Shown here: positions 5,161 to 41,649 of the stretch, in pieces
Layout of the letters: each line of letters starts with the position of its first letter
Numbering within the stretch: the first letter of the stretch is position 1
Source: Obrimoposthia wandeli
Lineage: Eukaryota
Direction of reading: 5' to 3'
Length of the DNA stretch: 64,000 nt
NCBI GenBank assembly: GCA_977020255.1
Contig: CDROCS010000777.1
Span: 868,001 to 932,000, forward strand
Notes under the pieces: generated by a model
What the model saw: the letters and a program-made list of their open reading frames with translations, nothing else
What the model was told of the DNA's origin: nothing
Databases searched by the model: none
Made by a program: the position numbers and the translations under genes

Positions 5161-5328
5161 GGTATCCTTCACTCTTAATCATTTTGATTTCATACGTTCA
5201 TAATATTAAATTGATGACGAATCTGTGCTTAATATTTGCTAAACTTATTTTTATAAAATGAAAATAAGTAACATCAAAAATGATTAAAAGTCTTGTTTTA
5301 AGTTTAAATTATATGCTTTAAATTAAAT

Positions 5329-8685: not shown

Positions 8686-9948
8686 TGTTGAGATTAGGAA
8701 ACTAAAAAATAATAAAAATAAACAAGCTATTTATAGTGGTAGATTTAACCTTAAAATAATAAAAGTTAGGAGAATAAAATAATTAATTGCACAAAAATTA
8801 GAAGTTGTAACTAAATAAAAATTTAAGTAAGGTTAAAGTTATGTGTATATAAGTTGAACAAAAATGCGTGAAAGGGTACAAATGAGGAGATAAAGAAATC
8901 CAGGAAAAAACGAAAATAAATAAATTATATAAGAAAAATTATTCGTGGGAAACGAAACAGTTGCTCCATTAGCAACTAAGTGAAGCAAGAAAAATTCCAT
9001 TAGTGGAGCACAAGTCGGAGATTTTCCCGGGCGAGTTTCTTGAGGTACATTGAGTGAAATTGTCCTGCATCGCTCAAATTAATTATTTCAGATTTTAGAA
9101 GAGAATTGCGAGCCACAGCACAGAACTCAAAAGTACAAGAAATTGGAGAAACACTATAAAAGCGAAAAGAAGTGCAGTTATTGAACAGAATCAAAAAACT
9201 GAAATTATGGAAATTGATCAAAGATTGGAGAGATTTGCAGGAGACATCATAAATTGAATCGTGAGTTGACCTATTTCGTGTAAACATTTATCATAAATTA
9301 AATTGTTGGGTATCTAAATAGGATACGTGTGGGAGTTGTAAACACACTTTTGGTATTTCGAATAAAAAACGAATCAAGGTATAAGCAACTAGCTAATTAG
9401 ACGGGTAATAGGGCACGGGGAATAAGTTGAAGGGTGATTATAGCGAGAGGTATATAACTGTATACGCATAAGGAAAGTGTCAACCCCGTTTTATTCAGTA
9501 TTAGTGTTAGGAATTTTTACGTGTGTTAAGTAATATAGTTGTTTTAGAGAAATCGATCAGAAAACTTATTTAGGACCAATTTTCTTGCGAACGTCTTTGC
9601 CTCTAACATATAGGCTACCCGAGATACAACCCACGAGACAATACTCCAAATGCTGACAGATTCAGAGAAATATTGTCTGCGTCGATTAGTCCCGACTCTG
9701 TTTACTGATATCCCTCTACGTTACACCACACCACACTAGTTTTGGGAATTCTATCCTTTTTGTGAACACAACTCTTTGAACACACCACAAATCAATAAGA
9801 CACAAAACCTTCAGATTGAAACTAAGATTAAGTAGAACACGAACAGGTGGGCCATATCCACCTGTAAGCCCTATCGCTACAGAACTCACGTTGGGGGCCT
9901 CCATACGAGGATCTACTTGAATAAGAGTTCCAATTAGAAACCCCAACA
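8686..9948 (+). mobile_element. Solo LTR (1263 bp) of a related Ty3/Gypsy family
   Basis: TGTTG...CAACA termini and a 4-bp TSD ATAA (8682-8685 / 9949-9952). The 3' end shares ACCTTCAGATT, GAACTCACGTTGGGG and AGAAACCCCAACA with the giant element's U5. Confidence 0.85.
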
Positions 9949-23850: not shown

Positions 23851-24067
23851 AGTTTCTAAATTAATTATGTTTTCTCAAACATATATGTGTTAAGGTTGAG
23901 AATTAAGAAAATTAAATATTTTAGTTGATTAAATACTAAAATAAAAAAGCCTTGAAAGCAAGGTCGAAAATCAAATTAAAATATTAAGTTGAATTTTAGA
24001 AGTAAAATTAGTGAAATATTAGGGTAAAATTAGGAGGACCACGAAGGTCGTGTATTATGCGAAAATG

Positions 24068-24075
24068 TATAAAAG
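24068..24075 (+). promoter_or_regulatory. Candidate LTR TATA box (TATAAAAG)
   Basis: Consensus TATA. The last ATG before 27271 lies immediately upstream (24065), consistent with a TSS near 24100. Confidence 0.55.
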
Positions 24076-24453
24076 TTAAACTAATTAACCCAAAAGGGAC
24101 AATATCAAAAACAAAAACTTAATTAGAAGAAAAACGGTTAATTACAACCGTCGCTCAAGGATCCCAAAGGTAAGCACTTTTGCGTGCAGTAATTAAGATT
24201 TGTTTTCCAGCTGTCATTGACTGACAGAATCCAAAATCACTAGAAGAAATCGACCAGGAAACCCAAAGCAGCTGCCAGTTGATTGGCAACTAGATTCCTA
24301 CTTAAGAAGGGCCATTTCAGGGAACAAACACAATTTCGGAAGCACTCCGGAATCGACTGAAAACAAGAAATCGACTTCTAGGTAACTTTTAGTGTAAGAA
24401 GTTATAAAAATTGAAATTATCTAGGAAAATTGAAGTGAATACCTGAACTGTAA

Positions 24454-24801
24454 CCAACTGATTAAAGAATTGAGAAACGATTCCAACTGATTAAAGAATT
24501 GAGAAACGATTCCAACTGATTAAAGAATTGAGAAACGATTCCAACTGATTAAAGAATTGAGAAACGATTCCAACTGATTAAAGAATTGAGAAACGATTCC
24601 AACTGATTAAAGAATTGAGAAACGATTCCAACTGATTAAAGAATTGAGAAACGATTCCAACTGATTAAAGAATTGAGAAACGATTCCAACTGATTAAAGA
24701 ATTGAGAAACGATTCCAACTGATTGAAGAATTGAGAAACGATTCCAACTGATTAAAGAATTGAGAAACGATTCCAACTGATTGAAGAATTGAGAAACGAT
24801 T
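24454..24801. repeat. 29-bp tandem repeat x12 inside the LTR (also at ~42478-42825)
   Basis: Unit CCAACTGATT(A/G)AAGAATTGAGAAACGATT; 348 bp = 12 x 29. Confidence 0.95.
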
Positions 24802-24908
24802 CCAACTGATTGAACGATTCTGCCAGGCTCGCAAATACCACATACGGACCCTACACCGGACGTCCCACGAGTTGCTGTAACTGGTAAGCACACAGATTAG
24901 GTCCATTC

Positions 24909-25345
24909 ATTGCCCCTAGTAGGCAATTAGGTTATTTCATTACCCCTAGTTGGTAATTCTACGTTTTTAAAATAATAAGCAAATTCATTACCCCTAGCTG
25001 GTAATTAGGACCTGTGTCTCTTTAACACAATCATTACCCCTAGTTGGTAATTAGGATCGGAACTTTATTCATTGTCCCCAGCGACAATTAGGAAACTTAC
25101 CAGACGTTTTTTCCGTAAGATTCATTGTCCCTAGCTGGCAATTAGGTTCCTTCATTGCCCCTAGTTGGTAATTCGGATAAATATTCATTGTCCCTAGTAG
25201 ACAATTCGGTAAGACTCATTGTCCACTAGCTGACAATTCGATTCGCACATTGTCCGTAGTTGACAATTAGGAGCAAGTTTTATTGTCATCTGGACAATTA
25301 GGATTTTAGGAGATCCCTTGTCTACAGTAGACAATTTGGGTCGAA
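24909..25345 (+). repeat. Array of 12 short stem-loops in the LTR (duplicated in the 3' LTR)
   Basis: ATT(GCC/ACC/GTC)-N5-8-(GGC/GGT/GAC)AAT; most loops resemble CCTAG(T/C)(A/T). Confidence 0.85.
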
Positions 25346-25605
25346 CACACAGAGAGAGTAAGGAACAAAGAAATATTTGGTTAGAGATAAGAAGTAGGAG
25401 CGAAGAAAATTAAGAGAGTTGCGTTATAGATTAACCAACCTGAGTAAGAAGACTAAACCTAAGAAACTTAATCACCTGAACGTAAAATCAATACGTGGTT
25501 CATCCCCACTTCTTGTAGAGACTCACAGAAGTCCTTTAGGAATTTTATCATACTTTTTAGAAATACGTACATAAACGTATTGTGGTGTTAGTTACGTGAA
25601 TTTTG

Positions 25606-25611
25606 AATAAA
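25606..25611 (+). promoter_or_regulatory. Candidate polyadenylation signal AATAAA (functional copy expected in the 3' LTR)
   Basis: AATAAA ~205 nt before the LTR end; position fits an R/U5 border. Confidence 0.45.
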
Positions 25612-25824
25612 CAATTTCCTACATTAGAACAAGTTGTTTTACACCCTTCAGACTAAGAGACATCAAATCAATACCTTCAGATAGTACAAGAGATTAGGCA
25701 ACCATAACACTAAGTAGGCCACGACCAACTTTAAGACCTGCTTCTAATCGAACTCACGTTGGGGCCCTCCGCACACTAAGAGGCTCTATACCAAGTTTCG
25801 TATAGAAACCCCAACATATTAAAG

Positions 25825-25843
25825 TGGTGCCCCGAGTGAGGAT
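25825..25843 (+). other. Primer-binding site complementary to elongator tRNA-Met
   Basis: TGGTGCCCCGAGTGAGGAT, 8 nt after the LTR, matches 18/19 the complement of the animal tRNA-Met(e) 3' end as I recall it (TGGTGCCCCGTGTGAGGAT). Confidence 0.85.
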
Positions 25844-25869
25844 AGCTCGTCGGACACAGCGAATTCACG

Positions 25870-26852
25870 TAGAATAAGTTCAGATAAGTTTTGGATAATT
25901 GAGAATAAGTTTCAGGTAAATAGAATAAGTTCAGATAAGTTGCGGATAATTGAGAATAAGTTTCAGGTAAATAGAATAAGTACAGATATTAAGAATAAGT
26001 TTCAGATATTGAGAATAAGTTTCAGATATTAAGAATAAGTTTCAGATATTGAGAATAAGTTTCAGATAAATTGAGAATAAGTTTCAGATAAATTGAGAAT
26101 AAGTTTCAGCAGAAGAATATAGACAATTGAGAATAAGTTTCAGAAGAAGATATAAGTAAATTGAGTTAAGAATTTGATAAGTTTTAAGAAATCGGGTAGA
26201 TTTGTTCCTCGAAGTTAAGAATTTGATAAGTTTTTGAGAAATCGAGTAGATTTGTTCCTCGAAGTTAAGAATTTGATAAGTGTTAAGAAATCGGGTAGAT
26301 TTGTTCCTCAAAGTTAAGAATTTGATAAGTGTTGAGAAATCGGGTAGATTTGTTCCTCGAAGTTAAGAATTTGATAAGTTTTTGAGAAATCGAGTAGATT
26401 TGTTCCTCGAAGTTAAGAATTTGATAAGTGTTAAGAAATCGGGTAGATTTGTTCCTCGAAGTTAAGAATTTGATAAGTGTTGAGAAATCGGGTAGATTTG
26501 TTCCTCGAAGTTAAGAATTTGATAAGTTTTTGAGAAATCGAGTAGATTTGTTCCTCGAAGTTAAGAATTTGATAAGTGTTAAGAAATCGGGTAGATTTGT
26601 TCCTCGAAGTTAAGAATTTGATAAGTGTTGAGAAGTCGAGTGGATTTGTTCCTCGAGTCAGTAAATTTTATAAGTGAGAATCGAGTGGATTGATACTCGA
26701 AGTAATTAATTGAATAAGTTAAGTCGGGAGACTCTGTCCTCGAACTAATTAAAAAGATAAAATCGTAAGTGAATTTGATAAAGTGAGAATCGAGTGGATT
26801 GATACTCGAAGTAATTAATTGAATAGGTTAAGTCGGGAGACTCTGTCCTCGA
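25870..26852 (+). repeat. Leader tandem repeats: ~20-bp GAGAATAAGTTTCAGATATT units, 49-50-bp unit x10, ~109-bp unit x2
   Basis: Read directly from the sequence; the 49-50-bp units contain TCG(A/G)GTAGATTTGTTCCTCGA. Confidence 0.9.
25913..25972 (+). promoter_or_regulatory. Two candidate major splice donors (CAG|GTAAAT at 25915/16 and 25966/67)
   Basis: Consensus-like 5' splice sites ~70 and ~125 nt after the PBS, the position of retroviral major donors. Confidence 0.5.
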
Positions 26853-27150
26853 ACTAATTAAAGAGATAAAAAGTCGTAAAATAAGAATTGTGAAATAAGA
26901 TAAAAATAATAAGTGAATTGATATCGTAAACGAATACATAATTGATAAGACAACGGATAATAGAAAAGGACCCGCGTATAATACTAGAAGACAAAGTCAG
27001 ATCCCCAAGGAAGAGATAAATAATAATAAAGTTAACCGAATTGAACAGGTTCCCCAAACAGATAACAAAGTAACAGAAAAGACTAGAGTCGAAGAAAACG
27101 TATCAGAAAGAGACGTTGATCAATCAGCGGTTTCAACCGGCAGTTTTAAT

Positions 27151-29631
27151 TTGACTGAATTATTTGGTGACATAGACCAAGAAGAATTTGAAATTGCCAA
27201 TCCAGTAGTGATTGAGGAAGTTCCATTGAATAATATTGCAGAAATAGTTGAAGACGATATAGTTGCAGATATGGCTCAACCAGGAGCTCAAGCAGATATT
27301 AATGCAGGAAATAATGTAGGTGACATGAATGCCGAGCAGTTGGCACAAGCTTTAAATGCGACGTTGAGACCCAATTTTTCAGGATCATTGCAGATTACAA
27401 AGTTTAAAGGAGATGAGGAAAGTATTTGTGACTTCCTCGCAGAATATTCGAGTTGTGCAGATGTTCAAGGATGGAACGATAAAGAAAAATGTATCAGAGT
27501 ACAGGCACATTTAACCGGATTAGCACTTGAAGTGTATAAACATTTGACAGAAGCAGAACGTTTGGACTGGCCAACGTTAGAAAATGCTTTTATTGGAAAA
27601 TTGGTATTAGGAGATTTAGCCAAAGTAAATAAGCGACTCATGAGAGAACGGAAACAGAAACATGATGAAGGCGTGAATGAATACGCGTATGTTTTGAGAA
27701 CCTTGGCCGCAAGAGCGTACCCAAGAAGAATAATGAGAAATCAGGACGGTAATCCTGTAGCTCCAGAAGCACAAGCAGCGGAAAATGACCGGAACCAAAA
27801 TGAAATGGCAGAGGTCTTGTTAGATATATTTAGAGGAGGATTGAAAAAGGATATTAAAGTGTTATTAGCGGTATCGGATACAAATGATTTTGATAACGCC
27901 GTGCGAAAGGCGAGAGAGATCGAGAAAAATATAAAGAATAATGCAGCATTGGCAATCTACGCAATGACTGCAGGTGACGACGATAAGACAAAGGTCTTCG
28001 TGAATAAAACAGAACCGAGTAATTTTCAGAATCGAAATTGTGGACAAAATAAGTTTGAAAAAGTAGATGAATCCAGTAACGGAAATAGAGATAATTTCCG
28101 AAGTAGGAATCGAGATGATTCGAGAGGTAGAAATAATAGTGAGTCTTGGAACAGGAATCGAGATGATTCAAGAGGTAGAAATAATAATGATTCGTGGAAT
28201 AGAAATAGAGATGATTCCAGGAATAGATTTAATAGAGATAATTCAGGAAATCGCCAACCTTGGAGAGGAGACGATAGGAATTATAACGCCAACAGAGGAG
28301 AGCGAAGTGACTCTCGATTTGGAAATAATACAGGAAATAGTGACGGAAGATTCAATAATCGAGGAAGCGGGTTTGAATCGAATTTCCGAAGAAATGATTT
28401 TAGAGGACGCTATGATAATAGACAGAATAGTCGTCGAGTACAGTTCGAAGATGAACAAAATAAGATAGATATTCGAGGGAGAATAATGTGTTACACGTGT
28501 AAACAAATGGGTCACTATTCGAGAGACTGTACGAGAAGTAAAGAGTTCGGAACTAACAGATTTGGAAATAATAATTTCGGTAATAATAATTTTGGAAATA
28601 ATTATAGAGGATATAATTCACCTCCGCCATGGAATAGAGGTGGTGGATATACTCCACAGCCATGGAGACTGAATAATCAGTATACAGATAGACAACAGTC
28701 ACCAGGTAGATATAATAACTATGCAGATAGACAGCAAGGAGCTGAGAGATACAGTAATTACGTAGGACAGCAAGGAGCTGAGAGATATAATAATTCCGGT
28801 AGATATAATAATAATAATGTCGACAAGACAAATAGTCGAGAGAGTTCGCCGAAACCGAAAGGAAATTTTAGTTATGTAAGCGATGACAGTGATAGGAATC
28901 GCGAGACCGAGCTTCGACGCGAAATAGATTTTGAAGATAGTGATAGTAAATTTGAACGAATGTTGGGAATAATTAAAGATTCACCACATACAAAGATGGC
29001 GAATTCATCTACGTTGTCGAAACAAGAGAGAAGTCTACACTCGAGAGAAGAGATGAATGATTTAATGAATAGAATATTAGAAGCGTATGAGACACCAATA
29101 GAGAAAACGTGTAACGCACAACCTATGACTGATCATGTGGAAGCAGCGAGAAATGCTACGAGTATGGAAAATGTAAAAAAGATAATTAGTGAAGCTAAGG
29201 AGACGTTAAATCAACCGTTAGATGAAACGAGTGAAGCTCCAGAAGTTCTGGCCAAATTGCAAACAATTAAAGTGCACCGATTGGAAGAAGTGCGTGCAGA
29301 ATTGGTTAAACATAGTCATGATAACTTGGGTTACAAAGAAGTACCCCGAGGACTACTGAAAGGTTATGGTCGTTATGTACAGAGATCAAACCAAAAAGGA
29401 ACGATGAAAATTTCACTTCGATTAATTTCCGGACAGATAATACATGAAAAACTTAACGTGTATCAAACAATGAAAACGATTCGGAAAAAGTTAGCCGAGA
29501 AACTTGAAATTGATGGAATGAATATGTTGTTCCATTATAAAGGGAGATCACTAGATGATGAGGACGTACCAGTCGAGTTTGGATATCCGATAGGAAATGA
29601 ATTAGAGGAAAAATTGATGTCATCACTGTAG
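27151..29631 (+). CDS. gag: Gag: capsid-like domain, R/N/G-rich region, CCHC knuckle, C-terminal ubiquitin-like domain
   Basis: Retrotransposon-gag-like core (WPTLENAF..YAYVLRTLAARAYP..FRGGLKKDIK) and CYTCKQMGHYSRDC at 28489-28530. First ATG is 27271; the frame is open from 26917. Confidence 0.9.
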   Translation: MTELFGDIDQEEFEIANPVVIEEVPLNNIAEIVEDDIVADMAQPGAQADINAGNNVGDMNAEQLAQALNATLRPNFSGSLQITKFKGDEESICDFLAEYSSCADVQGWNDKEKCIRVQAHLTGLALEVYKHLTEAERLDWPTLENAFIGKLVLGDLAKVNKRLMRERKQKHDEGVNEYAYVLRTLAARAYPRRIMRNQDGNPVAPEAQAAENDRNQNEMAEVLLDIFRGGLKKDIKVLLAVSDTNDFDNAVRKAREIEKNIKNNAALAIYAMTAGDDDKTKVFVNKTEPSNFQNRNCGQNKFEKVDESSNGNRDNFRSRNRDDSRGRNNSESWNRNRDDSRGRNNNDSWNRNRDDSRNRFNRDNSGNRQPWRGDDRNYNANRGERSDSRFGNNTGNSDGRFNNRGSGFESNFRRNDFRGRYDNRQNSRRVQFEDEQNKIDIRGRIMCYTCKQMGHYSRDCTRSKEFGTNRFGNNNFGNNNFGNNYRGYNSPPPWNRGGGYTPQPWRLNNQYTDRQQSPGRYNNYADRQQGAERYSNYVGQQGAERYNNSGRYNNNNVDKTNSRESSPKPKGNFSYVSDDSDRNRETELRREIDFEDSDSKFERMLGIIKDSPHTKMANSSTLSKQERSLHSREEMNDLMNRILEAYETPIEKTCNAQPMTDHVEAARNATSMENVKKIISEAKETLNQPLDETSEAPEVLAKLQTIKVHRLEEVRAELVKHSHDNLGYKEVPRGLLKGYGRYVQRSNQKGTMKISLRLISGQIIHEKLNVYQTMKTIRKKLAEKLEIDGMNMLFHYKGRSLDDEDVPVEFGYPIGNELEEKLMSSL

Positions 29632-29672
29632 GACGTCAAGAGTTAGTAGATAATGAAGGATTAACCGAGATA

Positions 29673-30647
29673 TTGAATTCTGCGTTAGAAATGATAAAAA
29701 CGCCTATAGAAATTTTAGACAGTTCAAGCGAAAGCGGAGATAATGATGTAGCTGAAGTTTGGAACAAGACATCCACACCAGAACCGTACGTAGCTGAATT
29801 ACAAGACATGAATTTAGAAAATGAGTTGACAACTCCAGTGGTTGAGGTGCCACCAGAACCAGATATAATTCCAATCAGACAAGATGAAGTCACGGATACA
29901 GCCAACCAAGTGAGACAAAACGAAACCGTAACACAACTAGTAGGAGAAGACGAAGTCTCCGAGATTGTAGATTTGGATTCACCAATTTGGCATGCCGCAT
30001 ACAAAGATAGACAAGCAGAGCAAATGATGCGACAAAATGAAGAGATTGGCCATGAAGAAGGACCAAGTCAAGAGATACAGTATAATGGTGAAACGTATGA
30101 TCCAGGAGAGAATCAAACTGAGTATCAGTATTTTCGAAGAGGGCCTGGAAGACCTAGAAAAGGTGAAAGTATATTACGAAATGTTCTAACTGCACCACAA
30201 ACTGATGAAGAAAGACATCTAAGTATTGGACAGTTAGCGGCGTCATTAGAGCAGTATAGTGCAGAGAGGAATGAAGATATCAGAGGTGATATGAATTCGG
30301 AAACTCCAAGTAGTAAAGATATACTTACGGGAATTCTCAGGCAAGTGAAGCCGAAGTTGTTCAAAATGTACAGAGATGAAACAACCGATATAACAGACAA
30401 TTTGACTAAAGCAGTCAGATCACAGATGTCTGCAGTAAAGAGAATGACCGCGAATCATGTATACCATGCATCGATAGATAGATTTTATGACGGTGAAGTT
30501 TTAGCGAGATTATGTGGAAACCAGACTACAAATAAAAAGTTAATTACAGCGATCACATATCTATGTTTCCAATTGACGGAACGAACGAGCCAACCTCACG
30601 AAGTCAAACAAGGAATAAATGAAGCGATGTATTTGATCGAGAAGTAA
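29673..30647 (+). CDS. Acidic/AT-hook/putative BEN-domain segment, probably a continuation of Gag in the -1 frame
   Basis: 324-aa ORF in the element's codon style; AT-hook RRGPGRPRKG (30135-30164); frame open from 29601, overlapping the ORF1 end. Confidence 0.75.
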   Translation: MNSALEMIKTPIEILDSSSESGDNDVAEVWNKTSTPEPYVAELQDMNLENELTTPVVEVPPEPDIIPIRQDEVTDTANQVRQNETVTQLVGEDEVSEIVDLDSPIWHAAYKDRQAEQMMRQNEEIGHEEGPSQEIQYNGETYDPGENQTEYQYFRRGPGRPRKGESILRNVLTAPQTDEERHLSIGQLAASLEQYSAERNEDIRGDMNSETPSSKDILTGILRQVKPKLFKMYRDETTDITDNLTKAVRSQMSAVKRMTANHVYHASIDRFYDGEVLARLCGNQTTNKKLITAITYLCFQLTERTSQPHEVKQGINEAMYLIEK

Positions 30648-30673
30648 CTTTCGAAGATCCAAGACTTAAAAAA

Positions 30674-32311
30674 TTGGCAAAAAAGGGACTTTTTGCTATA
30701 AAAAAGGATGGTAAAGACGTAATTAAATGCCACAAGTGTAAAAAAGAACGAATTATAGACAGATATACTCTTGAGCTACCTAAGAAAATTTTACATCATG
30801 AATTTTGCGAATTTTGTACTTTTAAAAACAAAATAAAGCAAAAAGAACAGAAAACCGAATGTATAATCGAATACCAAATCACACGAAAAGAGATTTTGGC
30901 TCAACAAGACACACCGGTAGTGTCATTCGTGAGAAGGTTATATCCAAAAGAAGCAGAAAGAATCAGAGAATTGGTAGAATTAAAAATAAAAACTACGCGA
31001 AACGGATACGGATCGATTTTTGAATTACTGCGAGATAAAGATGACAGTACAATTGAAACAAAAGAGAAAGAGTACATAAATGAACTAGAATACGTACTAG
31101 AAGATCCGGAATGCGCAGTTTGCATGGTCAACAAAATAGAAGTTGCCTTTCTACCATGCGGACATGTAAGAACATGTCGGAGATGTGCGAATGAAATGGT
31201 ATCATGTCCGATTTGTCGAAGAATAATAGATCGACAAGTGAGAAACATTAGATTTCACTATCCAAACATAGGAAGTGGACTGACAGAGTGTAATAATTCG
31301 ATAAATACAATATACCATATGGGAAACATAAATGGAGCACAGCGACCAGCAGCTATCATTAGAGTAAATAATTTAAGAGTAAAAGCCTTAATTGATACAG
31401 GTGCTGTAGCTTCGATAGTAAGTGAAGACTGTTTGACAGAGGAACAGAAACGAACAATGGCAGAACCAGATGAATTCTTGGTATCGGTCAATGGAGACCC
31501 TGTAAAAGTGACGGGAATATTACCATGTACATTTATTATTGGACGTAATACGATCACTATACCAGTTAGAATTATGAAAGAATGTCCTGAACCTACAATT
31601 TTAGGAATGGATGTACTATCACAACTTAAAGGGATAAGTATTGATTTACAAGATCCAAGATTGAAGGATAGCACATCAAACAGACAAATAAACCAAATTG
31701 ATGTAATTATAGAGAATCCTATAAAAATCGGTAAAAGATCACAATTTCTCATTCAAGGTCACACATTATCAGAAGATAAAGGACCAGTTGTGTTCGAACC
31801 ATCACGAGATTTCATAGAGAAATACGAATTACCAGTTGTGAGTACAGTATGCCTGATCGAAAACCACAAAATACCAGTTAGACTGATGAATACAACCAAC
31901 AATGACATCCTATTATACAGAGGAATGAGGTTGGGAAAGATAGCACAGATGGAGAATTCCACTGTATGCGCTATGAAACTCGATAAAGATACGAATGATT
32001 ACGAAGAAATAGTAATCCAATCAGAAAGACTGACAACTAGAGAAAAGAAACAATTACTTGATCTAATACATAAATTTCCAAAAGTAATTGCAAAAAATCC
32101 ATATGACATAGGAGAAACACCTGTCATAAAACATACAATACCACTGACAGAAGACAAAGTAGTCAGAAGAAGACCATACCGAGTACCATTACAATTACAA
32201 GATGAAGTAAAAAGTCAGATCGAAGATATGTCTAAAACAGGAGTAATTAGACCGAGTTTTTCGCCATTCTCAGCACCTGTGGTGTTGGTAAAAAGAAGGA
32301 TGGGAAAATGA
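30674..32311 (+). CDS. pol: BIR-like + IAP-type RING + aspartic protease + start of RT
   Basis: C3HC4 RING at 31112-31216, protease LIDTGAVASIVS (DTG at 31394), RT N-terminus RRRPYRVP..IRPSFSPFSAPVVLVK. Frame open from 30623. Confidence 0.9.
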   Translation: MAKKGLFAIKKDGKDVIKCHKCKKERIIDRYTLELPKKILHHEFCEFCTFKNKIKQKEQKTECIIEYQITRKEILAQQDTPVVSFVRRLYPKEAERIRELVELKIKTTRNGYGSIFELLRDKDDSTIETKEKEYINELEYVLEDPECAVCMVNKIEVAFLPCGHVRTCRRCANEMVSCPICRRIIDRQVRNIRFHYPNIGSGLTECNNSINTIYHMGNINGAQRPAAIIRVNNLRVKALIDTGAVASIVSEDCLTEEQKRTMAEPDEFLVSVNGDPVKVTGILPCTFIIGRNTITIPVRIMKECPEPTILGMDVLSQLKGISIDLQDPRLKDSTSNRQINQIDVIIENPIKIGKRSQFLIQGHTLSEDKGPVVFEPSRDFIEKYELPVVSTVCLIENHKIPVRLMNTTNNDILLYRGMRLGKIAQMENSTVCAMKLDKDTNDYEEIVIQSERLTTREKKQLLDLIHKFPKVIAKNPYDIGETPVIKHTIPLTEDKVVRRRPYRVPLQLQDEVKSQIEDMSKTGVIRPSFSPFSAPVVLVKRRMGK

Positions 32312-35300
32312 GATTCTGTATAGATTTCAGAGAACTGAACAAGATCACAAGAAAAGATGTGTATCCATTACCTAGAATCGAAGAGATGCTCGATAAATTG
32401 GGTAATTCAGATTATTTTACGACATTGGATTTGCAGAGTGGATACTGGCAAATCGAGATAGAGGAAGAAGATAAACACAAAACAGCCTTTTCCTGCGGAG
32501 ATGGATTATACGAATGCGAAAAGATGCCATTCGGACTGACAGGAGCTCCAGCAACATTTCAGCGTTGCATGAATTTTGTACTCGCATCGTGTGCAAACAC
32601 GATGGTGTATATTGATGACATAATAATATTTTCGAAAACGTTCGAAGAACATCTAAAAAATCTTGAAGTTGTATTTAAAAGACTGGAAAACGCTAAATTA
32701 AAAGTTAAACCTACAAAATGTGTATGGGCTAAAGAGCGAGTAACATTTTTAGGACATATAGTATCGAAAGAAGGCATTCGTCCTGATCCGGCAAAGATCG
32801 AGAAAGTAAAAGCGCATTTAGCGCCAAAGACTGTTAAGGAGATACAGAGTTTTTTAGGTCTTGCGAATTATTATAGACGATTTGTTGAACATTTTTCAGA
32901 TATAGCAACACCATTGAGAAAGTTGACGAGAAAAGATGAGAAGTTCATATGGGGAGAAGAAGCCCAACAAGCGTTCGAGCATTTAAAAGAAAGACTGATA
33001 AAAGCACCAATATTAGCGTTTCCAGATATAAACCGACAGTTCATACTCATGACAGATGCAAGTAACTATGCTGTAGGAGCAGTATTGGGACAAGAGGATG
33101 ACGAAGGAAGAGAACACGTCATTGCGTATGCGAGTAGAGGATTAAACAGAGCCGAAAGAGGATACTCTGTTATCGAAAAGGAATGTCTAGCCATAGTGTA
33201 TTCATGTAGACAGTACAGACACTATTTGCTAGGACAAAAAGTATTCCTGTATACAGATCACAAACCACTACAGTTCTTATATAAACATAGAGATGAGATG
33301 AGTAGATTAAACAGATGGTTTCTAAAATTGGCCGAATTCGATCTAGAAATCCGTTATAGAACCGGAAAGTCGAATGGCAACGCAGATTGTTTATCGAGAT
33401 TGACAAATGTAGATGAGAAAGGAAACATAATTCCAGAAGAAGATGAAACCAATGACCAAAAAGGAGAAGCAAATCTACTGACGATTTTGCTAAAGACGGG
33501 TAAAATAGACAAAGAGATCATCAAAGAACAGAAAGAAGATGAAGAACTGAGTCTAATCAAAGAATTGCTGGTGAAAGGAGATCTAAACGATGAAATGACG
33601 AAAAAATACTCGATAAAAGAAGGAATCTTGTATATTGTCAATAATGTCGGAAAGATAGTAGTAGTAATTCCGAAGTCATTGAAAACAGCAGTGATGATCC
33701 AGTATCACGACGGAACACTGGGAGGACATCTGTCAGGGCGAAAGACAATAGCCAGAATCAAAGAGAAGTACCATTGGGATGGTATGGAAGACGACATAAA
33801 ACAATGGTGTAAACAATGTAAAGTATGTTTAACCAGAAAAGACACCGGAACTCGTACTAAAGTTCCGTTGAAACCAATGCCAGTTCCCTTGGCACCAATG
33901 GAATTCACAGCGATGGATATATTGGGACCATTGAGAGAATCAAGTAAAGGAAACAAGTATGTCATAGTATTTACGGACTACATGACGAGATGGGTAGAAG
34001 CATATCCCATGCAGAACCAGAAAGCTGAAACAATAGCGCAAATCTTAGTGGAAGAGATAATATTTCGATACGGAGTGCCTAGAAAGTTGTTAACGGATCA
34101 AGGTAAGAACTTCACTGGAGAAGTCATAAAAGCAGTATCGAAGATATTCGGAATCATGAAGTTACAAACTTCACCATATCACCCACAGACAGATGGTCTG
34201 GTGGAAAGGTTTAATAAAACTTTATGTATGATGGTACAATCCTATTGCTCAGACAAGCAAGAGGATTGGGATAAATATTTACCTTCATGTTTATATGCTT
34301 ACAGGAATTCAGTTCGAGAGGCGACAGGTCACACACCATTCTATCTGATGTATCTCAGACAGAACAATATGCCAATGGATCTGGAGTGGACCGAGCCAAC
34401 ATCCCAGTACCTAGAAACTGAACAATACATTGTCGTCATGAAGGAAAGATTACAAGATGCTTGGACCAAAGCCGGATTGAAGTTGAAATTCAATCAAGAA
34501 GGTTACAAGGAACAATACGACAAAAAAGCAAAACCACATGAATTTAGAGTCGGAGATCAAGTGATGATATTTTATCCAGTCATCGAACCAGGTCTATCGT
34601 TTAAACTTCATAGACCATACAAAGGACCATACAAGGTGATCCAGACAACCTCAACAAATTTGAAAGTAATCAACGAAGAGAATCGGAACAAAGAACCGAT
34701 GATTGTACATGCAAATCGATGCAAATTAGTACCAAATAAAGATAATGCGTCACGATATGAGTTAAGATCACAGAAATCGAAGCCAAATACCAATACCATT
34801 AAACTTACACGAATGGTAAGTGATCGGAACTACATAAACATGATGACGAGTGGTAGCGAGAAAAAACCAGCGAGAATTGGTATGCTCAGAATGAAGTGCC
34901 AAGAGGAAAAGGAAGTAATCCGACACATCGCACCACAAGAGATATTAGAAGAAGACGAAGAGATAATAGTTGTTTTCGAAAAAACACAACCGACAGATGT
35001 GGCTAAAGAAGTCATTGTGAAAGATGCACTGACAAACGAATTTCTATGCGAACTTAGAGTGTCATATTACGACGGAAATACATTAGTCGCATCACTTTAT
35101 CAAAATTCCAATGTGTTTACGACTGAGAAAGTGATAATCGAAATCACATTGACACCAAACATAGTTGCATGGCAGAACTATGACAGTACTGAAGCAGGAC
35201 TAGCCAGTCAGGAAGAGAAGGAACCGGCCGGTGGTCACATACTGCATGGTACACCAAAAAGACTCAAACAAGAATACCACGATGTAATAATGGTATTACG

Positions 35301-38300
35301 TAATTCACATGGGAAAAGAGATATCATGAGAGTCCATTTAATCGACGCTGACACTGAAAAGATAATTTGTCAGATGGACACCAAATACTTTGATGGAAAG
35401 ACAATTGTATGTTGTATACCAGAATCTCACCGATTAGAGACAGATCAAACGGAAGTATCTGTAAGGTTGAGCGTAATAGAAGGATTCCATTCGCCAACCC
35501 ATCCGGAAGTGACTAACAATAAAATCATCAAAGCAACGGCAGAATTACGCATTGACAGCGGATACCGGAAGTGGGAAGCTAAAAATAAAAAGCCACAAAG
35601 AATCAATATGATCCGAGAACAAGTGACCAGCTCAATCCAGCCAAAATATCATGCTGAAATAGTATCATCCGCGCCAAGTGTAATTACATCGATAAACGAC
35701 GAAATTATAATTTTACTAAAAAATCGATGGCCGTCATCAACCGAGATACGAGTAAACTTAATTAATTATGCGAAGACACCGATATCTAAGCTGAATGTTA
35801 CCTATTTTGATGGATTGTCCATCATGGGTAAATTGGAAACAATTGTCATGTGCTATGGAGCACAGTTCCAAGTTGAGATACTTAAAGATAGTGTAATACC
35901 GTATCCGATTCACAAATACGAAGGGGAAATCAACCCAATTATTCTAACACCTTCATTAATTTCAGTTCAGACAGACATACCAGAATACCCTTCGAGCGAG
36001 TCTAGTGAAGACAGCGAACCGGAAAGTAACGATACAGAATCAACAGAATCCGAAGATAACATAATAGAGCGATTCGGAAGAACCATGGAGGTTGAATTCG
36101 CTAAAGAGAACAGAAAAAGACAAAACATAGAATTCGTGAAACAGAATATACAAGAAAGACGAATTAAATCTGCAGAAGAGACCGAGTCGGAAGAAGACTC
36201 AACAAAGGAACAGACATCAGAGACAAAGATGAATATCCCTCCAGCAATACGAATGCTGAGAGGAAAGAAACTGGCAAAACTAACTAACATCGACGACCAG
36301 ATAGAGAAGAGATTAGAAAGACTAAAACTTGAAGAGTCAGAATTAATGCCACCAATGAGTGAGATCATTCCAGGTAAGTTATACCTCGGAAATGTGGAGG
36401 ATGCCACAGATGAAAAGAAACTGTTGGAACAAGGGATAACATATGTGATCAACGTTACAATGAATCACAAATCGCAATATCAGACGATCAGAGCTATGAC
36501 ATTAAGAGTAAAAGACTCAATGGACGCTAATCTTCTCGAATGGTTCGTAGAAACAAACGAAATACTTCACAGAGAACTCCGAAACCAAGGAAAAGTGTTG
36601 GTACATTGTCAGAAAGGAATTTCTCGATCAGCAACCCTAGTATTAGCATATCTAATAAAGACTAGACGAATGCAGGTACTAGAAGCGTTAAAATACCTAC
36701 AGGAGAGAAGAAGTATTGCAAACCCAAATCTTAATTTTTTGGGACAGTTGGCAAATTACCAACTTCTGTTGCAAGAACAAAGACGGATGGACGACATTCC
36801 TGAGGATCCAAAGGAAAAGAATTTCCTCCAAGCATTATCACTGACTGGGTTATTTTTAGCTGGAGTCGACAAAATTACACAGATAATGCCAAAAGTATTT
36901 TTATGTCATCCAGGAGATATAGATACTGCTGGATTAAAGTTCCACAGTATCAACCGAGTAATCAACATTGTTGAAGTCGGAAACGAGATAATTAGTCTGT
37001 GTCAAAATACTGAAGATGACACCACTCGATACATACATGCTTCCAATCGAGAGATAAACGATGCGCAACAACATCTGACGAAATTGACTCAAACCATCCA
37101 AGCTGAAGTCACAGAAGGAAACGGCGTTCTGATATATCAGAAAAAAGGTACAATGTTAGCGCCTACCATAGGTGTATCCTTGTTGGTAGAGTACCATGGT
37201 CACACGCCAGAAGAAGCGATGGTCTACATCAAACAGAATAGACCAAATACGGAATTCAAACCGTTACTCGTTCGAGAAATAGAGAAATACACCGAAAAGA
37301 GGAAGCAACAACGAGAAACAAATGAAGCTACAACAACAGTGCCCAGCTTTCAATACCAAAGATTGCTAGCGATAGGCTTGTTAAGTTGTTTAATGCCGAT
37401 AACGGGAGCACAGGAGATAGGCTCCAACCACGGAAATAGTTCCTGGTTCAACGAAATCCACAATTACACCATACAGTACCATACGCCGGCACTGATGATG
37501 CTATTAGTGTTGTTAGGACTAATTGATGTGTGGATCATCCGAAAATGTCTTCGATCTATGAGAACCGACAGTAAAAGATTTCAGTTTGTAAAGATGAAAA
37601 GACCAAATGGACCAACGAACAAAGTGCTTGTGTATCTAGACGAAAGGATCGAAGATAACATAGTAAATGAAGCGATATTTTACCCACAAAACAGAATACT
37701 GAAGCAATTCCGAATAGATTATGAAGCTGACCGACAACGCACACTTGACCAAATATCAACAACATTCGCCGGATGCAAGCGAAGAAAACGAGTTGTAAAG
37801 GAAATACAAAAAGATGCTGATACAAAAGGACCAACGTATATATTCAACGGCGATGTCATCAAAACACGTGAGTATGGAAGTAAGAGAGTGATAATTGAAA
37901 CGATGGAAGGACATAAAACATGCTTGTCCGCCAAAAATGGATTCGGAAAGTTGACGATACAAGGTAAACCAGTACAGTTGATTATCGGAAGAGATGGAAT
38001 CGAGGAGATGTCAAAACAACGACAAACAACAAAACGAACCAATCAGAAACAGATATCTCTCAAACGATTGATAATTAAAACCCTTTGCAAAAGGTCAGTC
38101 AAGGCCCTGTGCACCGTTGCACAAGGATTGATTTATGGAGTAGTAATTGGATTGGTACTGCAAGCCATGCCAACCAGTAAAGCCGAATTGATGACACTAT
38201 CCGAATATAATTTACATTTGAGAAATCTAGACAACACCCTAGAAATAATCAAGACATCCCACAGTAGAGCCGTGATGATCATGTGTGTAAAAGGATGTCC

Positions 38301-40026
38301 AGGACGAATGTGTATAGTCCCAGCAACCGAAATGATAACACTTAATGGACATTATGGAGTTAGTGTTGTCACATGTGAAGACTACATATTTGGACAAACT
38401 AAAATAGTGCTTCTCAGTGACACGTCCAACCAAAGTGCACACAAATTTAAGATATTAACCATCAAGAGTAAAGGAATACCAGCAGTACGTTATGGTATTC
38501 TAGAATTAGTTAATCCAATACTGGCACTGATCATTGGATTTATAATATTAATATTACTCATCTTGTTTTGTTGTTCAAAGATAGAGTCGAGATCAAAAAA
38601 GAAACGTCATGATCTCGCAAGACGAACAGGTCAAATGAACTTACAGAAATTCAACACAATCATACCAAGACCACCATTTCTAGATGAACCAGCACCAGAG
38701 TACCAGCCAACGATATATGAACACATAGAGGAAAGACCGTACTATATGAGTAATTTGACTTGTTTCATTGAAGTTCCTGAGTTTAGGAATCGAACGATCA
38801 TAGGAATCATGCTGATCGTACAAATCACCACTACCAAGGCTAGTTATGAGATCATGATCAGTAAATGGAGACAAGACGTAATACGGGCAATATACATAGA
38901 AATTCCCTTACTAAAAACAAATCACGTAGTAGACATTCATCTACAGACGTCAGCAACTGACAATATCGATCAGAAATTGTATGTCATCCGACAGGTCAGA
39001 ATAAAAATCGACCAAAATACACCCGTTTACAATTTAATATTATTGCATCATGAAAGAGTGTTATACCTACGGATAACAATATCAAAGAGGAAGCGGATTA
39101 TCCAAAGTATCCGAACAAAGTCATTAATATTACCTAGAGATGAGCGCATCTGGAAAATTGTTGACAGGATTATGATCACAGGTAGACGACGTAAAGCCGT
39201 ATGGAATTCCGTTAGGATATTTTTCAGATTGCTAGAAACTGACAGCGTGACAGTAATGTGTCCCAACCCAGATGGCGTAATCAGATTCGAAATCCAAAGC
39301 CAAATGTTAGTACCACATTTTAACACAGAATGTCTGTGTAATCGAATTGCCAGTAATTCTACAGAGACCTCGACCATAATCATGATAATAACAGGTGAAA
39401 TATTCTACATAACTCTAAGATACCAGAACCGTCGATTTCGCAGATACGGTATAAGTATCAAACCCAGGAAAATCATTCCCAGAAGACCAATCCTAGTCAA
39501 AAAGAAGGCAAAGGTAATCGAAAGTAAACGACATTCCAAGAAACCGACAGTGATCAAAACAAAGACAGAAGCGAAAGAAAAAGAGTCCAATCCCAGAAAC
39601 CAAAGTACAATTATTAAGAGGACAAGAGTGAGGGGAACGATCCCACTAGATCCCAAACATCATTTCCAATCCAAAATAATAATACCTGTTCCATCAGAAA
39701 CAAAACACCCAAATCCCCGAATTTTTAGAAAATCGGACATAATACATGGAAACCGATCAAAACCCATGGAAATATCATTCGAACCGACAAACAACAAAAT
39801 GAAGTATGATTATAAAACATCAGACAGCGGAATAACAGCAGTCAATGCCCTAATTGGAATGGCCGTAGTGTCAACAGCGGTGGTTCTACTTACAATCGTG
39901 TGCGTAAAAGGCAGTCAAGTATGCCCAGGAATACGACGAAAATGCGAAGGATTGCGATGCTGTGACACACCCATCATGGAGGAAGTGGAATTACGACCCT
40001 TACCTCCACCTCCCATCAAGATATGA
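32308..40026 (+). CDS. pol: Pol (RT, RNase H, integrase) fused to ~1730 aa of accessory domains (3 Ig-like repeats, DSP, pseudo-DSP, membrane region)
   Basis: YIDD at 32608; RNase H TDAS..EKECLAI..YTDH; IN HHCC, D-D-E core and GPY; no stop until 40026. Confidence 0.97.
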   Translation: MRFCIDFRELNKITRKDVYPLPRIEEMLDKLGNSDYFTTLDLQSGYWQIEIEEEDKHKTAFSCGDGLYECEKMPFGLTGAPATFQRCMNFVLASCANTMVYIDDIIIFSKTFEEHLKNLEVVFKRLENAKLKVKPTKCVWAKERVTFLGHIVSKEGIRPDPAKIEKVKAHLAPKTVKEIQSFLGLANYYRRFVEHFSDIATPLRKLTRKDEKFIWGEEAQQAFEHLKERLIKAPILAFPDINRQFILMTDASNYAVGAVLGQEDDEGREHVIAYASRGLNRAERGYSVIEKECLAIVYSCRQYRHYLLGQKVFLYTDHKPLQFLYKHRDEMSRLNRWFLKLAEFDLEIRYRTGKSNGNADCLSRLTNVDEKGNIIPEEDETNDQKGEANLLTILLKTGKIDKEIIKEQKEDEELSLIKELLVKGDLNDEMTKKYSIKEGILYIVNNVGKIVVVIPKSLKTAVMIQYHDGTLGGHLSGRKTIARIKEKYHWDGMEDDIKQWCKQCKVCLTRKDTGTRTKVPLKPMPVPLAPMEFTAMDILGPLRESSKGNKYVIVFTDYMTRWVEAYPMQNQKAETIAQILVEEIIFRYGVPRKLLTDQGKNFTGEVIKAVSKIFGIMKLQTSPYHPQTDGLVERFNKTLCMMVQSYCSDKQEDWDKYLPSCLYAYRNSVREATGHTPFYLMYLRQNNMPMDLEWTEPTSQYLETEQYIVVMKERLQDAWTKAGLKLKFNQEGYKEQYDKKAKPHEFRVGDQVMIFYPVIEPGLSFKLHRPYKGPYKVIQTTSTNLKVINEENRNKEPMIVHANRCKLVPNKDNASRYELRSQKSKPNTNTIKLTRMVSDRNYINMMTSGSEKKPARIGMLRMKCQEEKEVIRHIAPQEILEEDEEIIVVFEKTQPTDVAKEVIVKDALTNEFLCELRVSYYDGNTLVASLYQNSNVFTTEKVIIEITLTPNIVAWQNYDSTEAGLASQEEKEPAGGHILHGTPKRLKQEYHDVIMVLRNSHGKRDIMRVHLIDADTEKIICQMDTKYFDGKTIVCCIPESHRLETDQTEVSVRLSVIEGFHSPTHPEVTNNKIIKATAELRIDSGYRKWEAKNKKPQRINMIREQVTSSIQPKYHAEIVSSAPSVITSINDEIIILLKNRWPSSTEIRVNLINYAKTPISKLNVTYFDGLSIMGKLETIVMCYGAQFQVEILKDSVIPYPIHKYEGEINPIILTPSLISVQTDIPEYPSSESSEDSEPESNDTESTESEDNIIERFGRTMEVEFAKENRKRQNIEFVKQNIQERRIKSAEETESEEDSTKEQTSETKMNIPPAIRMLRGKKLAKLTNIDDQIEKRLERLKLEESELMPPMSEIIPGKLYLGNVEDATDEKKLLEQGITYVINVTMNHKSQYQTIRAMTLRVKDSMDANLLEWFVETNEILHRELRNQGKVLVHCQKGISRSATLVLAYLIKTRRMQVLEALKYLQERRSIANPNLNFLGQLANYQLLLQEQRRMDDIPEDPKEKNFLQALSLTGLFLAGVDKITQIMPKVFLCHPGDIDTAGLKFHSINRVINIVEVGNEIISLCQNTEDDTTRYIHASNREINDAQQHLTKLTQTIQAEVTEGNGVLIYQKKGTMLAPTIGVSLLVEYHGHTPEEAMVYIKQNRPNTEFKPLLVREIEKYTEKRKQQRETNEATTTVPSFQYQRLLAIGLLSCLMPITGAQEIGSNHGNSSWFNEIHNYTIQYHTPALMMLLVLLGLIDVWIIRKCLRSMRTDSKRFQFVKMKRPNGPTNKVLVYLDERIEDNIVNEAIFYPQNRILKQFRIDYEADRQRTLDQISTTFAGCKRRKRVVKEIQKDADTKGPTYIFNGDVIKTREYGSKRVIIETMEGHKTCLSAKNGFGKLTIQGKPVQLIIGRDGIEEMSKQRQTTKRTNQKQISLKRLIIKTLCKRSVKALCTVAQGLIYGVVIGLVLQAMPTSKAELMTLSEYNLHLRNLDNTLEIIKTSHSRAVMIMCVKGCPGRMCIVPATEMITLNGHYGVSVVTCEDYIFGQTKIVLLSDTSNQSAHKFKILTIKSKGIPAVRYGILELVNPILALIIGFIILILLILFCCSKIESRSKKKRHDLARRTGQMNLQKFNTIIPRPPFLDEPAPEYQPTIYEHIEERPYYMSNLTCFIEVPEFRNRTIIGIMLIVQITTTKASYEIMISKWRQDVIRAIYIEIPLLKTNHVVDIHLQTSATDNIDQKLYVIRQVRIKIDQNTPVYNLILLHHERVLYLRITISKRKRIIQSIRTKSLILPRDERIWKIVDRIMITGRRRKAVWNSVRIFFRLLETDSVTVMCPNPDGVIRFEIQSQMLVPHFNTECLCNRIASNSTETSTIIMIITGEIFYITLRYQNRRFRRYGISIKPRKIIPRRPILVKKKAKVIESKRHSKKPTVIKTKTEAKEKESNPRNQSTIIKRTRVRGTIPLDPKHHFQSKIIIPVPSETKHPNPRIFRKSDIIHGNRSKPMEISFEPTNNKMKYDYKTSDSGITAVNALIGMAVVSTAVVLLTIVCVKGSQVCPGIRRKCEGLRCCDTPIMEEVELRPLPPPPIKI
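36355..36775 (+). other. Dual-specificity phosphatase domain (catalytic motif intact) within the polyprotein
   Basis: SEIIPGKLYLG..GITYVINVT..VLVHCQKGISRSATLVLAYL..RRSIANPNLNFLGQL; HCxxGxxRS at 36604-36630. Confidence 0.95.
36874..37290 (+). other. Second DSP-fold domain lacking the catalytic Cys/Arg (pseudophosphatase)
   Basis: ITQIMPKVFL..INRVINIV..GNGVLIYQKKGTMLAPTIGVSLLVEYHGHTPEEAMVYIKQNRP parallels domain 1, with the HCxxGxxR motif degenerate. Confidence 0.8.
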
Positions 40027-40149: not shown

Positions 40150-40449
40150 ATGGCCGAAGAATGCCCAATATGTTTAGAAGATCTAACCGAACGAAGAACA
40201 AGACCCGAAACCTGCAACCATTTACACCACGAGGAATGTTTATCGACATGGATCAGAACTTATGGACAGTTCGGACACCCAACATACCCTCGTTGCCCTA
40301 TATGCAGAAGACAATTCGCAAGATTCGTCATGTTAGAACCCAACCAAAGGGATGTATATGTACAGGTGGTATTCTGCTGGAAGAATTTCGGAGAGTGTTG
40401 GTGTTATTACTGTTTGTCAGATCGACAAAATCAGACCACTTTTGTGTAA
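40150..40449 (+). CDS. Small RING-H2 protein 1 with C-terminal Cys cluster
   Basis: CPIC..CNHLHHEEC..W..CPIC, then CWKNFGECWCYYC. Confidence 0.9.
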   Translation: MAEECPICLEDLTERRTRPETCNHLHHEECLSTWIRTYGQFGHPTYPRCPICRRQFARFVMLEPNQRDVYVQVVFCWKNFGECWCYYCLSDRQNQTTFV

Positions 40450-40509
40450 AGATCACACAACCACCAGTCCTCAATCGAGCCCAAATTCAACATCAACCCT
40501 CCCACAGTA

Positions 40510-40815
40510 ATGTCTGGAGAATGTTCCATCTGCTACGAGAGCATCGTGGACTTCTACACCAAGCCCAACAACTGCGACCACCTTTTCCACGTCGAATGCC
40601 TCGAGACGTGGATCCCCATCGCAAACAGCAACAACCCCCTCGACTTCCCAACCTGCCCGATGTGCAGAGCGACCTTCTCAGTACACTACGTGTACAACCA
40701 AGACATCCTCCAAGCAGTGGTACCCATCGTACACTGCTGGAAAACCATCTGCGATTGCTGGTGCTCGTTCTGCGTGGAAGAGCGAAGCACAGGCCAGCCC
40801 AATCCCCAACAATAA
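40510..40815 (+). CDS. Small RING-H2 protein 2 (paralogue of protein 1)
   Basis: CSIC..CDHLFHVEC..W..CPMC, then CWKTICDCWCSFC. Confidence 0.9.
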   Translation: MSGECSICYESIVDFYTKPNNCDHLFHVECLETWIPIANSNNPLDFPTCPMCRATFSVHYVYNQDILQAVVPIVHCWKTICDCWCSFCVEERSTGQPNPQQ

Positions 40816-41148
40816 TCGAAGGTAACTTTCTGACTTGAACATGACATCATGAACTACCCTGTGTATCGCATACCGCGATAAATTAGCTACCATAATTGTA
40901 ATCATAATTATATAATCTTGTGAACTGTAAATTGACCATTACCATTTTTATGTATGATGTTTAACTGAAATTGTAATTATTATACTGAATTTCTAAAAAG
41001 ACAATTTTTATGCTTAGTGTGAATGCGTAAACATGCCTAAAATCGAAACAAAACTCGGTAGGATTAGATAACTAAGGATTCATTTTGAAACAAAATTTAA
41101 ATTAACGATGAGAACGGTGAACCCCAAATTGAAAGGAGTCATTTTCTC

Positions 41149-41649
41149 ATGCAGATGTTGTGCTCCGTATGCATGGAGAAGATTTGGGCGGCATCAGCAT
41201 CCCCTGTCGGCTGCCGCCACAAGTTCCACGAATCCTGCCTATATACTTGGGCCCGACTTCGACCCGGACAAGTCAATTGCCCCTATTGCCGCACTCCCTT
41301 CGCGGAATGGACACTACAGTGTCGAGGGCGCCACAAGGGCACCCATTCGCTCACCAGCTGTATTGGTGGCGAGCACTGCCAGTGCCCCGACTGTATCGCG
41401 CGCCGTCGCGATGCAAAACTCGCCCTCCGCGAGAAATACCGGTCAACCCGTGACCCCCGCTCATGGCAGCGTGGCCGTCAAATATGGCTCAAGAATCGCG
41501 GAGTACACGGGCGGTACACGACCATTTTTCACCCGAGCCAACACCTCACCATGCGCCAGCAGATGATACTGTACGATGGCGGCCCACCATCGTATCCAGA
41601 ACTACCACTGGAGCAGGTCTTGCTGTTTTTGAGAGACCGGAACAATTGA
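41149..41649 (+). CDS. Small RING-H2 protein 3 with basic C-terminal extension (true start may be ATG 41155)
   Basis: CSVC..CRHKFHESC..W..CPYC, then CIGGEHCQCPDC. Confidence 0.9.
   Translation: MQMLCSVCMEKIWAASASPVGCRHKFHESCLYTWARLRPGQVNCPYCRTPFAEWTLQCRGRHKGTHSLTSCIGGEHCQCPDCIARRRDAKLALREKYRSTRDPRSWQRGRQIWLKNRGVHGRYTTIFHPSQHLTMRQQMILYDGGPPSYPELPLEQVLLFLRDRNN

Follow-up and report, generated by a model that had tools for sequence, protein, structure and literature searches.

Leaky scanning and initiation at codons other than AUG are both described for viruses (PMC3542737; this and the other papers named below are cited from extracts). According to that review, the glyco-Gag of murine leukaemia virus is an N-terminal extension of Gag that is initiated at CUG, and the Gag AUG downstream is reached by leaky scanning. 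In rice tungro bacilliform virus, three open reading frames (ORFs I, II and III) are served by a non-AUG start and a long AUG-free coding scan, of approximately 895 nt. Here we describe a 64,000-nt stretch of DNA from Obrimoposthia wandeli (assembly GCA_977020255.1, contig CDROCS010000777.1, forward-strand positions 868,001 to 932,000; hereafter the window), in which a Ty3/gypsy element contains 3203 nt free of ATG before its Gag gene. This gap lies within a young, high-copy element and is the 5′ end of its genomic RNA. The gap is real and extreme, and the leader, judged by analogy, would work most like glyco-Gag combined with the leaky scanning of rice tungro bacilliform virus.

As with glyco-Gag, the genomic RNA is that of a long terminal repeat (LTR) element, an extension that is in frame and free of AUG precedes its Gag AUG, and two Gag forms are predicted from one RNA. 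It differs in that the element is a Ty3/gypsy retrotransposon, the candidate start codon is ACG and the predicted extension is acidic and lacks a signal or membrane segment (hydropathy over 19 residues at most 0.95). In contrast to rice tungro bacilliform virus, the AUG-free region here is mostly non-coding, and no short shunt ORF is present. The barley copia element BARE1 has LTRs of similar length and a long stretch between its possible starts and gag, but its RNAs start near the LTR 3′ end (nt 1350-1689) and form two pools for translation and replication (PMC3735527), whereas the loss of ATG in the present element suggests a single start approximately 210 nt into the LTR.

Near-cognate N-terminal Gag isoforms are already known in gammaretroviruses. 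A literature search that covered part of the field listed no near-cognate N-terminal Gag isoform for an LTR retrotransposon, no AUG-free retrotransposon leader or untranslated region, nothing on a long R region in retrotransposons and nothing related to the domain set of this element. Natural scanning distance is usually judged from leaders of less than 1 kb. A high-copy element cleared of AUG over 3.2 kb is a natural test of the scanning limit. If it is scanned as proposed below, the distance of approximately 3.2 kb would be more than three times the longest in the extracts of the virus review (PMC3542737). Scanning of the HIV-1 leader has been probed with inserted AUGs (PMC3130279); the extracts of PMC11410931 and PMC13238120 hold nothing on leaders.

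Depletion of ATG across the leader

The original prediction placed an ATG-free stretch between a TATAAAAG box and the first Gag ATG, and the counts bear this out: no ATG was missed on the + strand, the preceding one standing at 24065-24067 and the following one at 27271. This is the longest ATG gap of the window; next come one of 1751 nt, which is its counterpart in the 3′ LTR, and one of 443 nt in a related solo LTR. Among the 64 trinucleotides, ATG alone has a count of zero in the gap, against a first-order Markov expectation of 49.3.

Chance amplified by repeats was rejected as an explanation, since the depletion remains when the tandem arrays are cut to one unit each (1932 nt; 24.9 ATG expected, 0 observed). 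In 2000 dinucleotide shuffles of this collapsed sequence, the mean was 25.6 ATG and the minimum 14, so that none reached zero. The non-repeat blocks (1440 nt) likewise hold no ATG where 18.0 are expected and the shuffle minimum is 9, and each of five sub-blocks is empty against expectations of 4.3, 5.8, 3.8, 17.2 and 8.8. Overlapping windows of the host flanks, taken on both strands, contain at least 33 ATG per 3203 nt (n = 666) and at least 10 per 1440 nt (n = 772). CTG, GTG, ACG and TTG are not depleted in the gap; the loss is therefore specific to ATG. CAT, which had been described as frequent, is present but does not exceed expectation overall (25 versus 35.6): about half of its occurrences (13) come from one block of hairpin repeats at 24812-25299, and 25817-26871 has none.

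A solo LTR of a diverged sister family elsewhere in the window has the same trait. Behind its TATA-like box (8885-9948, 1064 nt) it contains 2 ATG versus 16.9 expected (P ~7e-6), while its first 198 nt contain 3 versus 3.8 expected. CAT is near expectation there (12 versus 16.2), which makes the ATG loss strand-specific. The two LTR types have U5 end motifs in common and align loosely in the TATA region, where the TATAAAAG box lies opposite a degenerate box with a similar ATG-containing motif upstream. As the families are diverged but of common descent, the sister LTR speaks for persistence of the trait and not for a second origin.

Selection against upstream AUG, as originally proposed, is well supported by these results: the depletion beats a repeat-aware null, affects all sub-blocks, is strand-specific and recurs in the sister LTR. 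The depletion itself is demonstrated; a cause related to scanning is what we infer from it.

Only two ATGs (at 24057 and 24065; 3.2 expected) stand in the 5′ LTR upstream of the TATA-like box. They lie no more than 11 nt from the box and follow 169 nt that contain none, so the left edge of the gap marks the transcription start only weakly. A start near 24100, with a U3 of approximately 210 nt, is plausible. Given such a start, it follows that R and U5 together span approximately 1.7 kb, however they are divided. ATG depletion may also help to place the start site within long LTRs from DNA alone.

Proposed translation of an extended Gag

On the basis of this depletion, we propose the following scheme. 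The genomic RNA would start approximately 30 nt past the TATA-like box at 24068. Because this RNA must keep R-U5, the primer-binding site (PBS) and the packaging region, Gag would be translated behind a leader of approximately 3.17 kb. Ribosomes would load at the cap and scan this leader; upstream AUGs would have been removed by selection as they would divert ribosomes and could make the 18-kb RNA a target of nonsense decay. A minority would initiate in the Gag frame at a near-cognate codon, for which ACG 26953 is the most likely candidate, giving Gag an acidic, loosely constrained extension of up to 106 residues. The others would leak past it, through an extension free of AUG, and begin the short Gag at AUG 27271. 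That the unspliced leader is scanned is quite probable. Its combination with near-cognate initiation of an extended Gag is somewhat probable, and the scheme as a whole, including the leak to AUG 27271, is the one towards which we lean.

The Gag frame proved to be open for 118 codons before the ATG, from 26917, as originally stated, and such openness arose in 1 of 20000 shuffles. The extension has a codon-position chi2 of 54.7, compared with 28.9 for the first 118 Gag codons, and none of 20000 stop-free nulls was as high; the periodicity persists without GAA codons (p 2e-6). A frame model trained on the element's own genes scores the extension at +16.9 bits in the Gag frame and at -10.5 and -39.6 in the others, and is negative in all frames for the non-coding LTR blocks. 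Most of this signal falls within 27061-27270. The extension contains no ATG, compared with 11 in the following 354 nt. Across 181 coding windows the average is 8.1, and one window has zero. Leaky scanning beyond a weak start would be expected to leave such a pattern, in which a coding stretch is cleared of AUG and the clearance stops sharply at the first one (PMC3542737).

ACG 26953 is the first near-cognate codon, Ile codons aside, with both A-3 and G+4, and other near-cognate codons in good context follow it. Variation among copies was read at the 40 of 96 variant places shown. Among these, 26953-26955 is invariant, and an ATG-to-ACG change private to this copy is therefore unlikely. The 15 variants upstream of 27271 create no ATG and the 14 in-frame extension variants create no stop, both with low power, as at most approximately one such event was expected in each case. 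In the loose ends of more diverged copies, read by eye, both rows at 27251 have their ATG start one codon nearer and still in frame, and three of four rows at 27176 show an open, acidic frame. A TR[SRQA] motif near Gag N-termini was rejected because its enrichment is too weak (9 of 144; shuffle mean 3.9, maximum 11).

Several results weigh against the scheme of scanning with a minority near-cognate start. The extension variants are 2 synonymous to 12 non-synonymous, which is neutral-like (3.7 synonymous expected, P 0.25) and differs from the 20 to 5 of Gag (Fisher p 1e-4). Immediately behind ACG, at 26953-27060, the coding signal is weak (0.8 bits versus 0.5 in another frame), so the true start may lie further down. 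There is no hairpin downstream of ACG 26953 (z +0.65). Compared with 149 Gag relatives, the extension reaches an E of 0.065 at best. The scanning path holds a U5-PBS stem with a predicted energy of -31 kcal/mol, in addition to twelve small hairpins. Finally, given the strong donor-like sites and a possible 41-nt intron at 24170-24210, the gap in the DNA may overstate the length of the RNA that is translated.

The first of these results fit a reading, which we consider rather unlikely, in which the leader is AUG-selected and scanned to AUG 27271 only and the 118-codon frame is an untranslated relic of a former N-terminus. Neutral-looking variants, the lack of homology to other Gag N-termini and the weak signal just behind ACG are all as a relic would have them. 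However, a former ordinary coding stretch should hold approximately 8 ATGs; complete loss of ATG from a frame that stays stop-free and periodic is easier if the stretch was leaky-scanned while coding, and the frame is apparently kept in diverged copies. The extension thus appears to be one of two things: a translated stretch under loose constraint, or a relic of recent origin. The originally suggested non-AUG initiation gains from the clear coding signature of the upstream frame, but no amino-acid constraint is seen there among the copies.

The donor-like sites bear on another reading, which seems improbable: that the translated RNA is much shorter through a second promoter, cis-splicing or a trans-spliced leader ending in AUG, so that ribosomes are delivered near Gag and the start of the extension could be supplied. 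The site at 24170, which agrees with the donor consensus at 8 of 9 positions, is accompanied by donor-like GTs at 25916 and 25967 in the internal leader arrays, which are absent from the 3′ end of the element, and TTTCAG occurs eight times in 25910-26138. Separate RNA pools are described for BARE (PMC3735527), and flatworm spliced leaders supply AUG (PMC9851317). Further, an acceptor-like YAG lies 0-2 nt before the ATG of all three RING ORFs of the element, compared with 38 of 1539 ATGs in host sequence and 13 of 351 within the element; this is a lead only, as the threshold was set after the sites were seen and two of the RING ORFs resemble each other. These acceptor-like sites suggest spliced accessory RNAs and, with them, an element that splices, so that some Gag RNA may be spliced as well. 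Yet a shorter RNA would leave the clearance of ATG from every sub-block from 24068 onwards unexplained. In addition, a splice-made AUG was rejected for the pairs covered, since joining any of 8 donor-like to any of 74 acceptor-like sites gives no junction ATG; the seven in-frame AGs within the extension have no convincing pyrimidine tract; and the YAG before ATG 27271 is altered in approximately 96% of the summed contig depth.

Leader length and hairpins would suit internal entry or shunting to Gag, with the lack of ATG serving avoidance of nonsense decay or reflecting repeat composition bias, and Idefix is said to use both cap-dependent and cap-independent routes (cited in PMC3735527). We regard this as very improbable. 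With internal entry, AUGs far upstream should come under weaker selection, yet the 5′-most blocks are cleared as well; a shunt of the caulimovirid type depends on a large stem with a short AUG ORF ahead of it (PMC3542737), and 24068-27270 offers no AUG for one; and repeat composition alone is excluded by the collapsed null.

Within the scheme of scanning with a minority near-cognate start, the 5′-proximal donor probably also supplies spliced RNAs for the three RING ORFs. A complex-retrovirus-like design, which would unite two Gag isoforms, a 1.5-kb R with covarying hairpins and spliced RING RNAs, is a speculative and unlikely extension of the argument.

Extent of the R region

The original prediction drew R as approximately 1.5 kb, up to AATAAA 25606. 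The hexamer is where it was said to be and is the sole canonical one of the main LTR behind the TATA-like box, and it is followed at the customary spacing by CA and G/T-rich sequence. Its position, however, has no counterpart in the sister LTR, which has AATAAA at 8915 (37 nt past its TATA-like box), at 9361 and at five further places in its U3-like part, nor in the minus-strand fragment at 62461-62691. We therefore consider an R of 1.5 kb slightly less likely than not.

We mildly favour a short R with a long U5, where cleavage would follow soon after the start, via a weak hexamer near the TATA-like box or the ATTAAA repeats. The two sister sequences, including the AATAAA at 8915 so close to its box, point in this direction, and the longest R named in PMC3694450 is 228 nt. 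On the other side stand the uniqueness and context of AATAAA 25606 and the position of two donor-like sites 310 and 360 nt past it, behind the 5′ LTR only, where they could suppress it in the manner of HIV-1, whose downstream donor site silences the 5′ LTR poly(A) signal (PMC3694450). If used, AATAAA 25606 would lie in R and need silencing in the 5′ LTR, as under the U1 snRNP control of foamy virus and HIV-1, and donor-like sites are found here in R and behind the PBS. The R regions of those viruses are approximately 200 nt or less (PMC3694450), whereas the candidate here would be approximately 1.5 kb. An occluding poly(A) hairpin like that of HIV-1 was rejected, as folding at 25606 is no better than in shuffles (z -0.17).

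Predicted RNA structures in the LTR

Alignment of the twelve hairpin units leaves 71 of 72 stem cells paired, with 8 changed on both sides and 2 G-U wobbles, and none of 500 shuffles scores as high; structures slid out of the actual register score worse. These counts overstate the number of events, since the units are related by descent and were chosen with a stem-favouring pattern. The wobbles pair only as + strand RNA, which fits transcription through the mid-LTR, and this region looks like a functional RNA. In 10 of the 12 units C directly precedes the stem, and all 12 have T at the facing position, where a pairing G would have made ATG. A search of 23800-27400 against Rfam at E 1 gave no match.

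The sister LTR family retains the U5 motif at 25753-25767, which mimics the tRNA 3′ end and can pair with the PBS. Self-priming of an RNA started near the LTR end, as suggested by the U5-PBS pairing, was considered and dropped: the PBS is a tRNA-Met site, and the pairing does not imply such priming.

The host element and its family

The element spans 19,952 bp, and its features are listed in Table 1. It has the characters of the Metaviridae: paired LTRs between TATG target-site duplications; Gag, protease, reverse transcriptase (RT), RNase H and integrase in this order across three frame breaks; and a tRNA-Met PBS behind the 5′ LTR, with an unusual 8-nt spacer. At loci matching the PBS, tRNAs were called in 43 of 93, and tRNA-Met makes up 39 of 44 calls; from its G-starting acceptor stem, we take this tRNA to be of the elongator type. 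The plus-strand priming region (41880-41912) is atypical: a run of T precedes a short stretch of mixed G and C, and the region is not purine-rich. The LTRs are 99.8% identical and differ by four single-base indels and no substitutions. All four indels fall in homopolymers or short runs, so assembly error is possible, and the same doubt applies to the three polyprotein frame breaks (29601-29631, 30623-30647 and 32251-32311) within an otherwise open coding region of 12.7 kb.

Table 1. Features of the element and of related LTR sequences in the window
Feature	Position	Strand	Details
ATG-free stretch	24068..27270	+	3203 nt; inferred genomic-RNA 5′ leader plus Gag-frame extension
5′ LTR	23888..25816	+	TG...CA, 1929 nt; 4-bp target-site copy TATG before
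Inferred U3	23888..24099	+	A/T-rich, 6% C; boundary inferred
TATA-like box	24068..24075	+	TATAAAAG; start site inferred ~30 nt downstream
Splice-donor-like site	24167..24175	+	GT at 24170; 8/9 consensus positions; candidate major donor in R
Tandem array	24454..24811	+	29-nt unit x 12.3; ATTAAA in ten units
Twelve dispersed hairpin units	24905..25338	+	6-bp stems; compensatory stem changes
Candidate poly(A) signal	25606..25611	+	AATAAA, then CA, G/T-rich stretch; would give R ~1.5 kb, U5 ~0.2 kb
U5 segment pairing with PBS	25753..25840	+	z -2.5; 3/200 shuffles as good
Primer-binding site	25825..25843	+	complementary to 3′ end of tRNA-Met(CAU); starts 8 nt past LTR end
Internal leader arrays	25870..26871	+	20/51-nt, 49-nt x 10, 109-nt x 2
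Gag-frame extension	26917..27270	+	118 codons, Met-less, acidic; ATG-free in all three frames
Candidate near-cognate start	26953..26955	+	ACG, best candidate; Gag frame, A-3, G+4
Gag from first ATG	27271..29631	+	G-3, G+4; capsid domain, CCHC knuckle, weak ubiquitin-like stretch
Rest of polyprotein region	29601..40026	+	three overlapping frames: unknown; RING-protease; RT-RNase H-integrase-two DSP-membrane region
Three small RING-finger ORFs	40150..41649	+	ATGs 40150, 40510, 41155
3′ LTR	41913..43839	+	TG...CA ends; TATG after
Solo LTR, diverged sister family	8686..9948	+	TG...CA, flanked by ATAA
Third LTR fragment, sister family	62461-62691	-	3′ fragment, 84% identical to solo LTR

Pfam matches cover the CCHC knuckle, RING, protease, RT, RNase H, integrase, two DSP domains and the three small RING ORFs, while 29601-30647, between gag and pol, has none. 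A fourth RING lies directly before the protease, at 31100-31240. The best relatives of Pol are 49-55% identical. The two DSP phosphatase domains (36349-37500; E 2.7e-40 and 2.3e-06) are in frame behind the integrase; two matches to the DSP domain, at 41-42% identity, carry beetle DUSP10-like names. No long protein with the region behind the integrase was found among 7998 scored candidates of 1425-4535 residues. The membrane region at the end of Pol (37408-40026) has four hydrophobic segments and a weak resemblance to phlebovirus-type glycoproteins (score 0.83, sub-threshold; recognition 1490), and is possibly env-like cargo.

Between 32,305 and 38,011 contigs matched 1181 nt of the element in each of four public runs from one sample, which indicates a very large family, though this is not a copy number. 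Pattern scans for related loci gave 31 matches in metagenome contigs and 1 in viral contigs, none of them confirmed.

The element resembles the planarian Burro elements, which are also very large and gypsy-like, reside in an AT-rich genome and have accessory ORFs and ubiquitination-related extras (PMC6431247), represented here by RING domains and the weak ubiquitin-like stretch. Burro elements, however, exceed 30 kb. The BIR, ankyrin, BCL2-like and MATH domains of their ORF1 are unmatched here (Pfam at E 0.1, and at E 1 on seven pieces), and their env-like region lies between gag and pol, whereas the weak glycoprotein-like lead here (0.83) lies behind the integrase, as do the DSP phosphatase domains and the membrane region. 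Leader AUG content is unmentioned in the extract of PMC6431247.

Elsewhere in the window, no clear host gene was seen by eye. Decayed pieces at 4500-6050, 13200-14480, 43876-44256 and 59250-62000 were labelled by eye, and these are presumably of mariner, piggyBac, hAT, LINE and BEL/Pao types. A dispersed repeat of approximately 700 nt is present in two copies, at 21014-21686 and 52596-53278, which are 84-92% identical.

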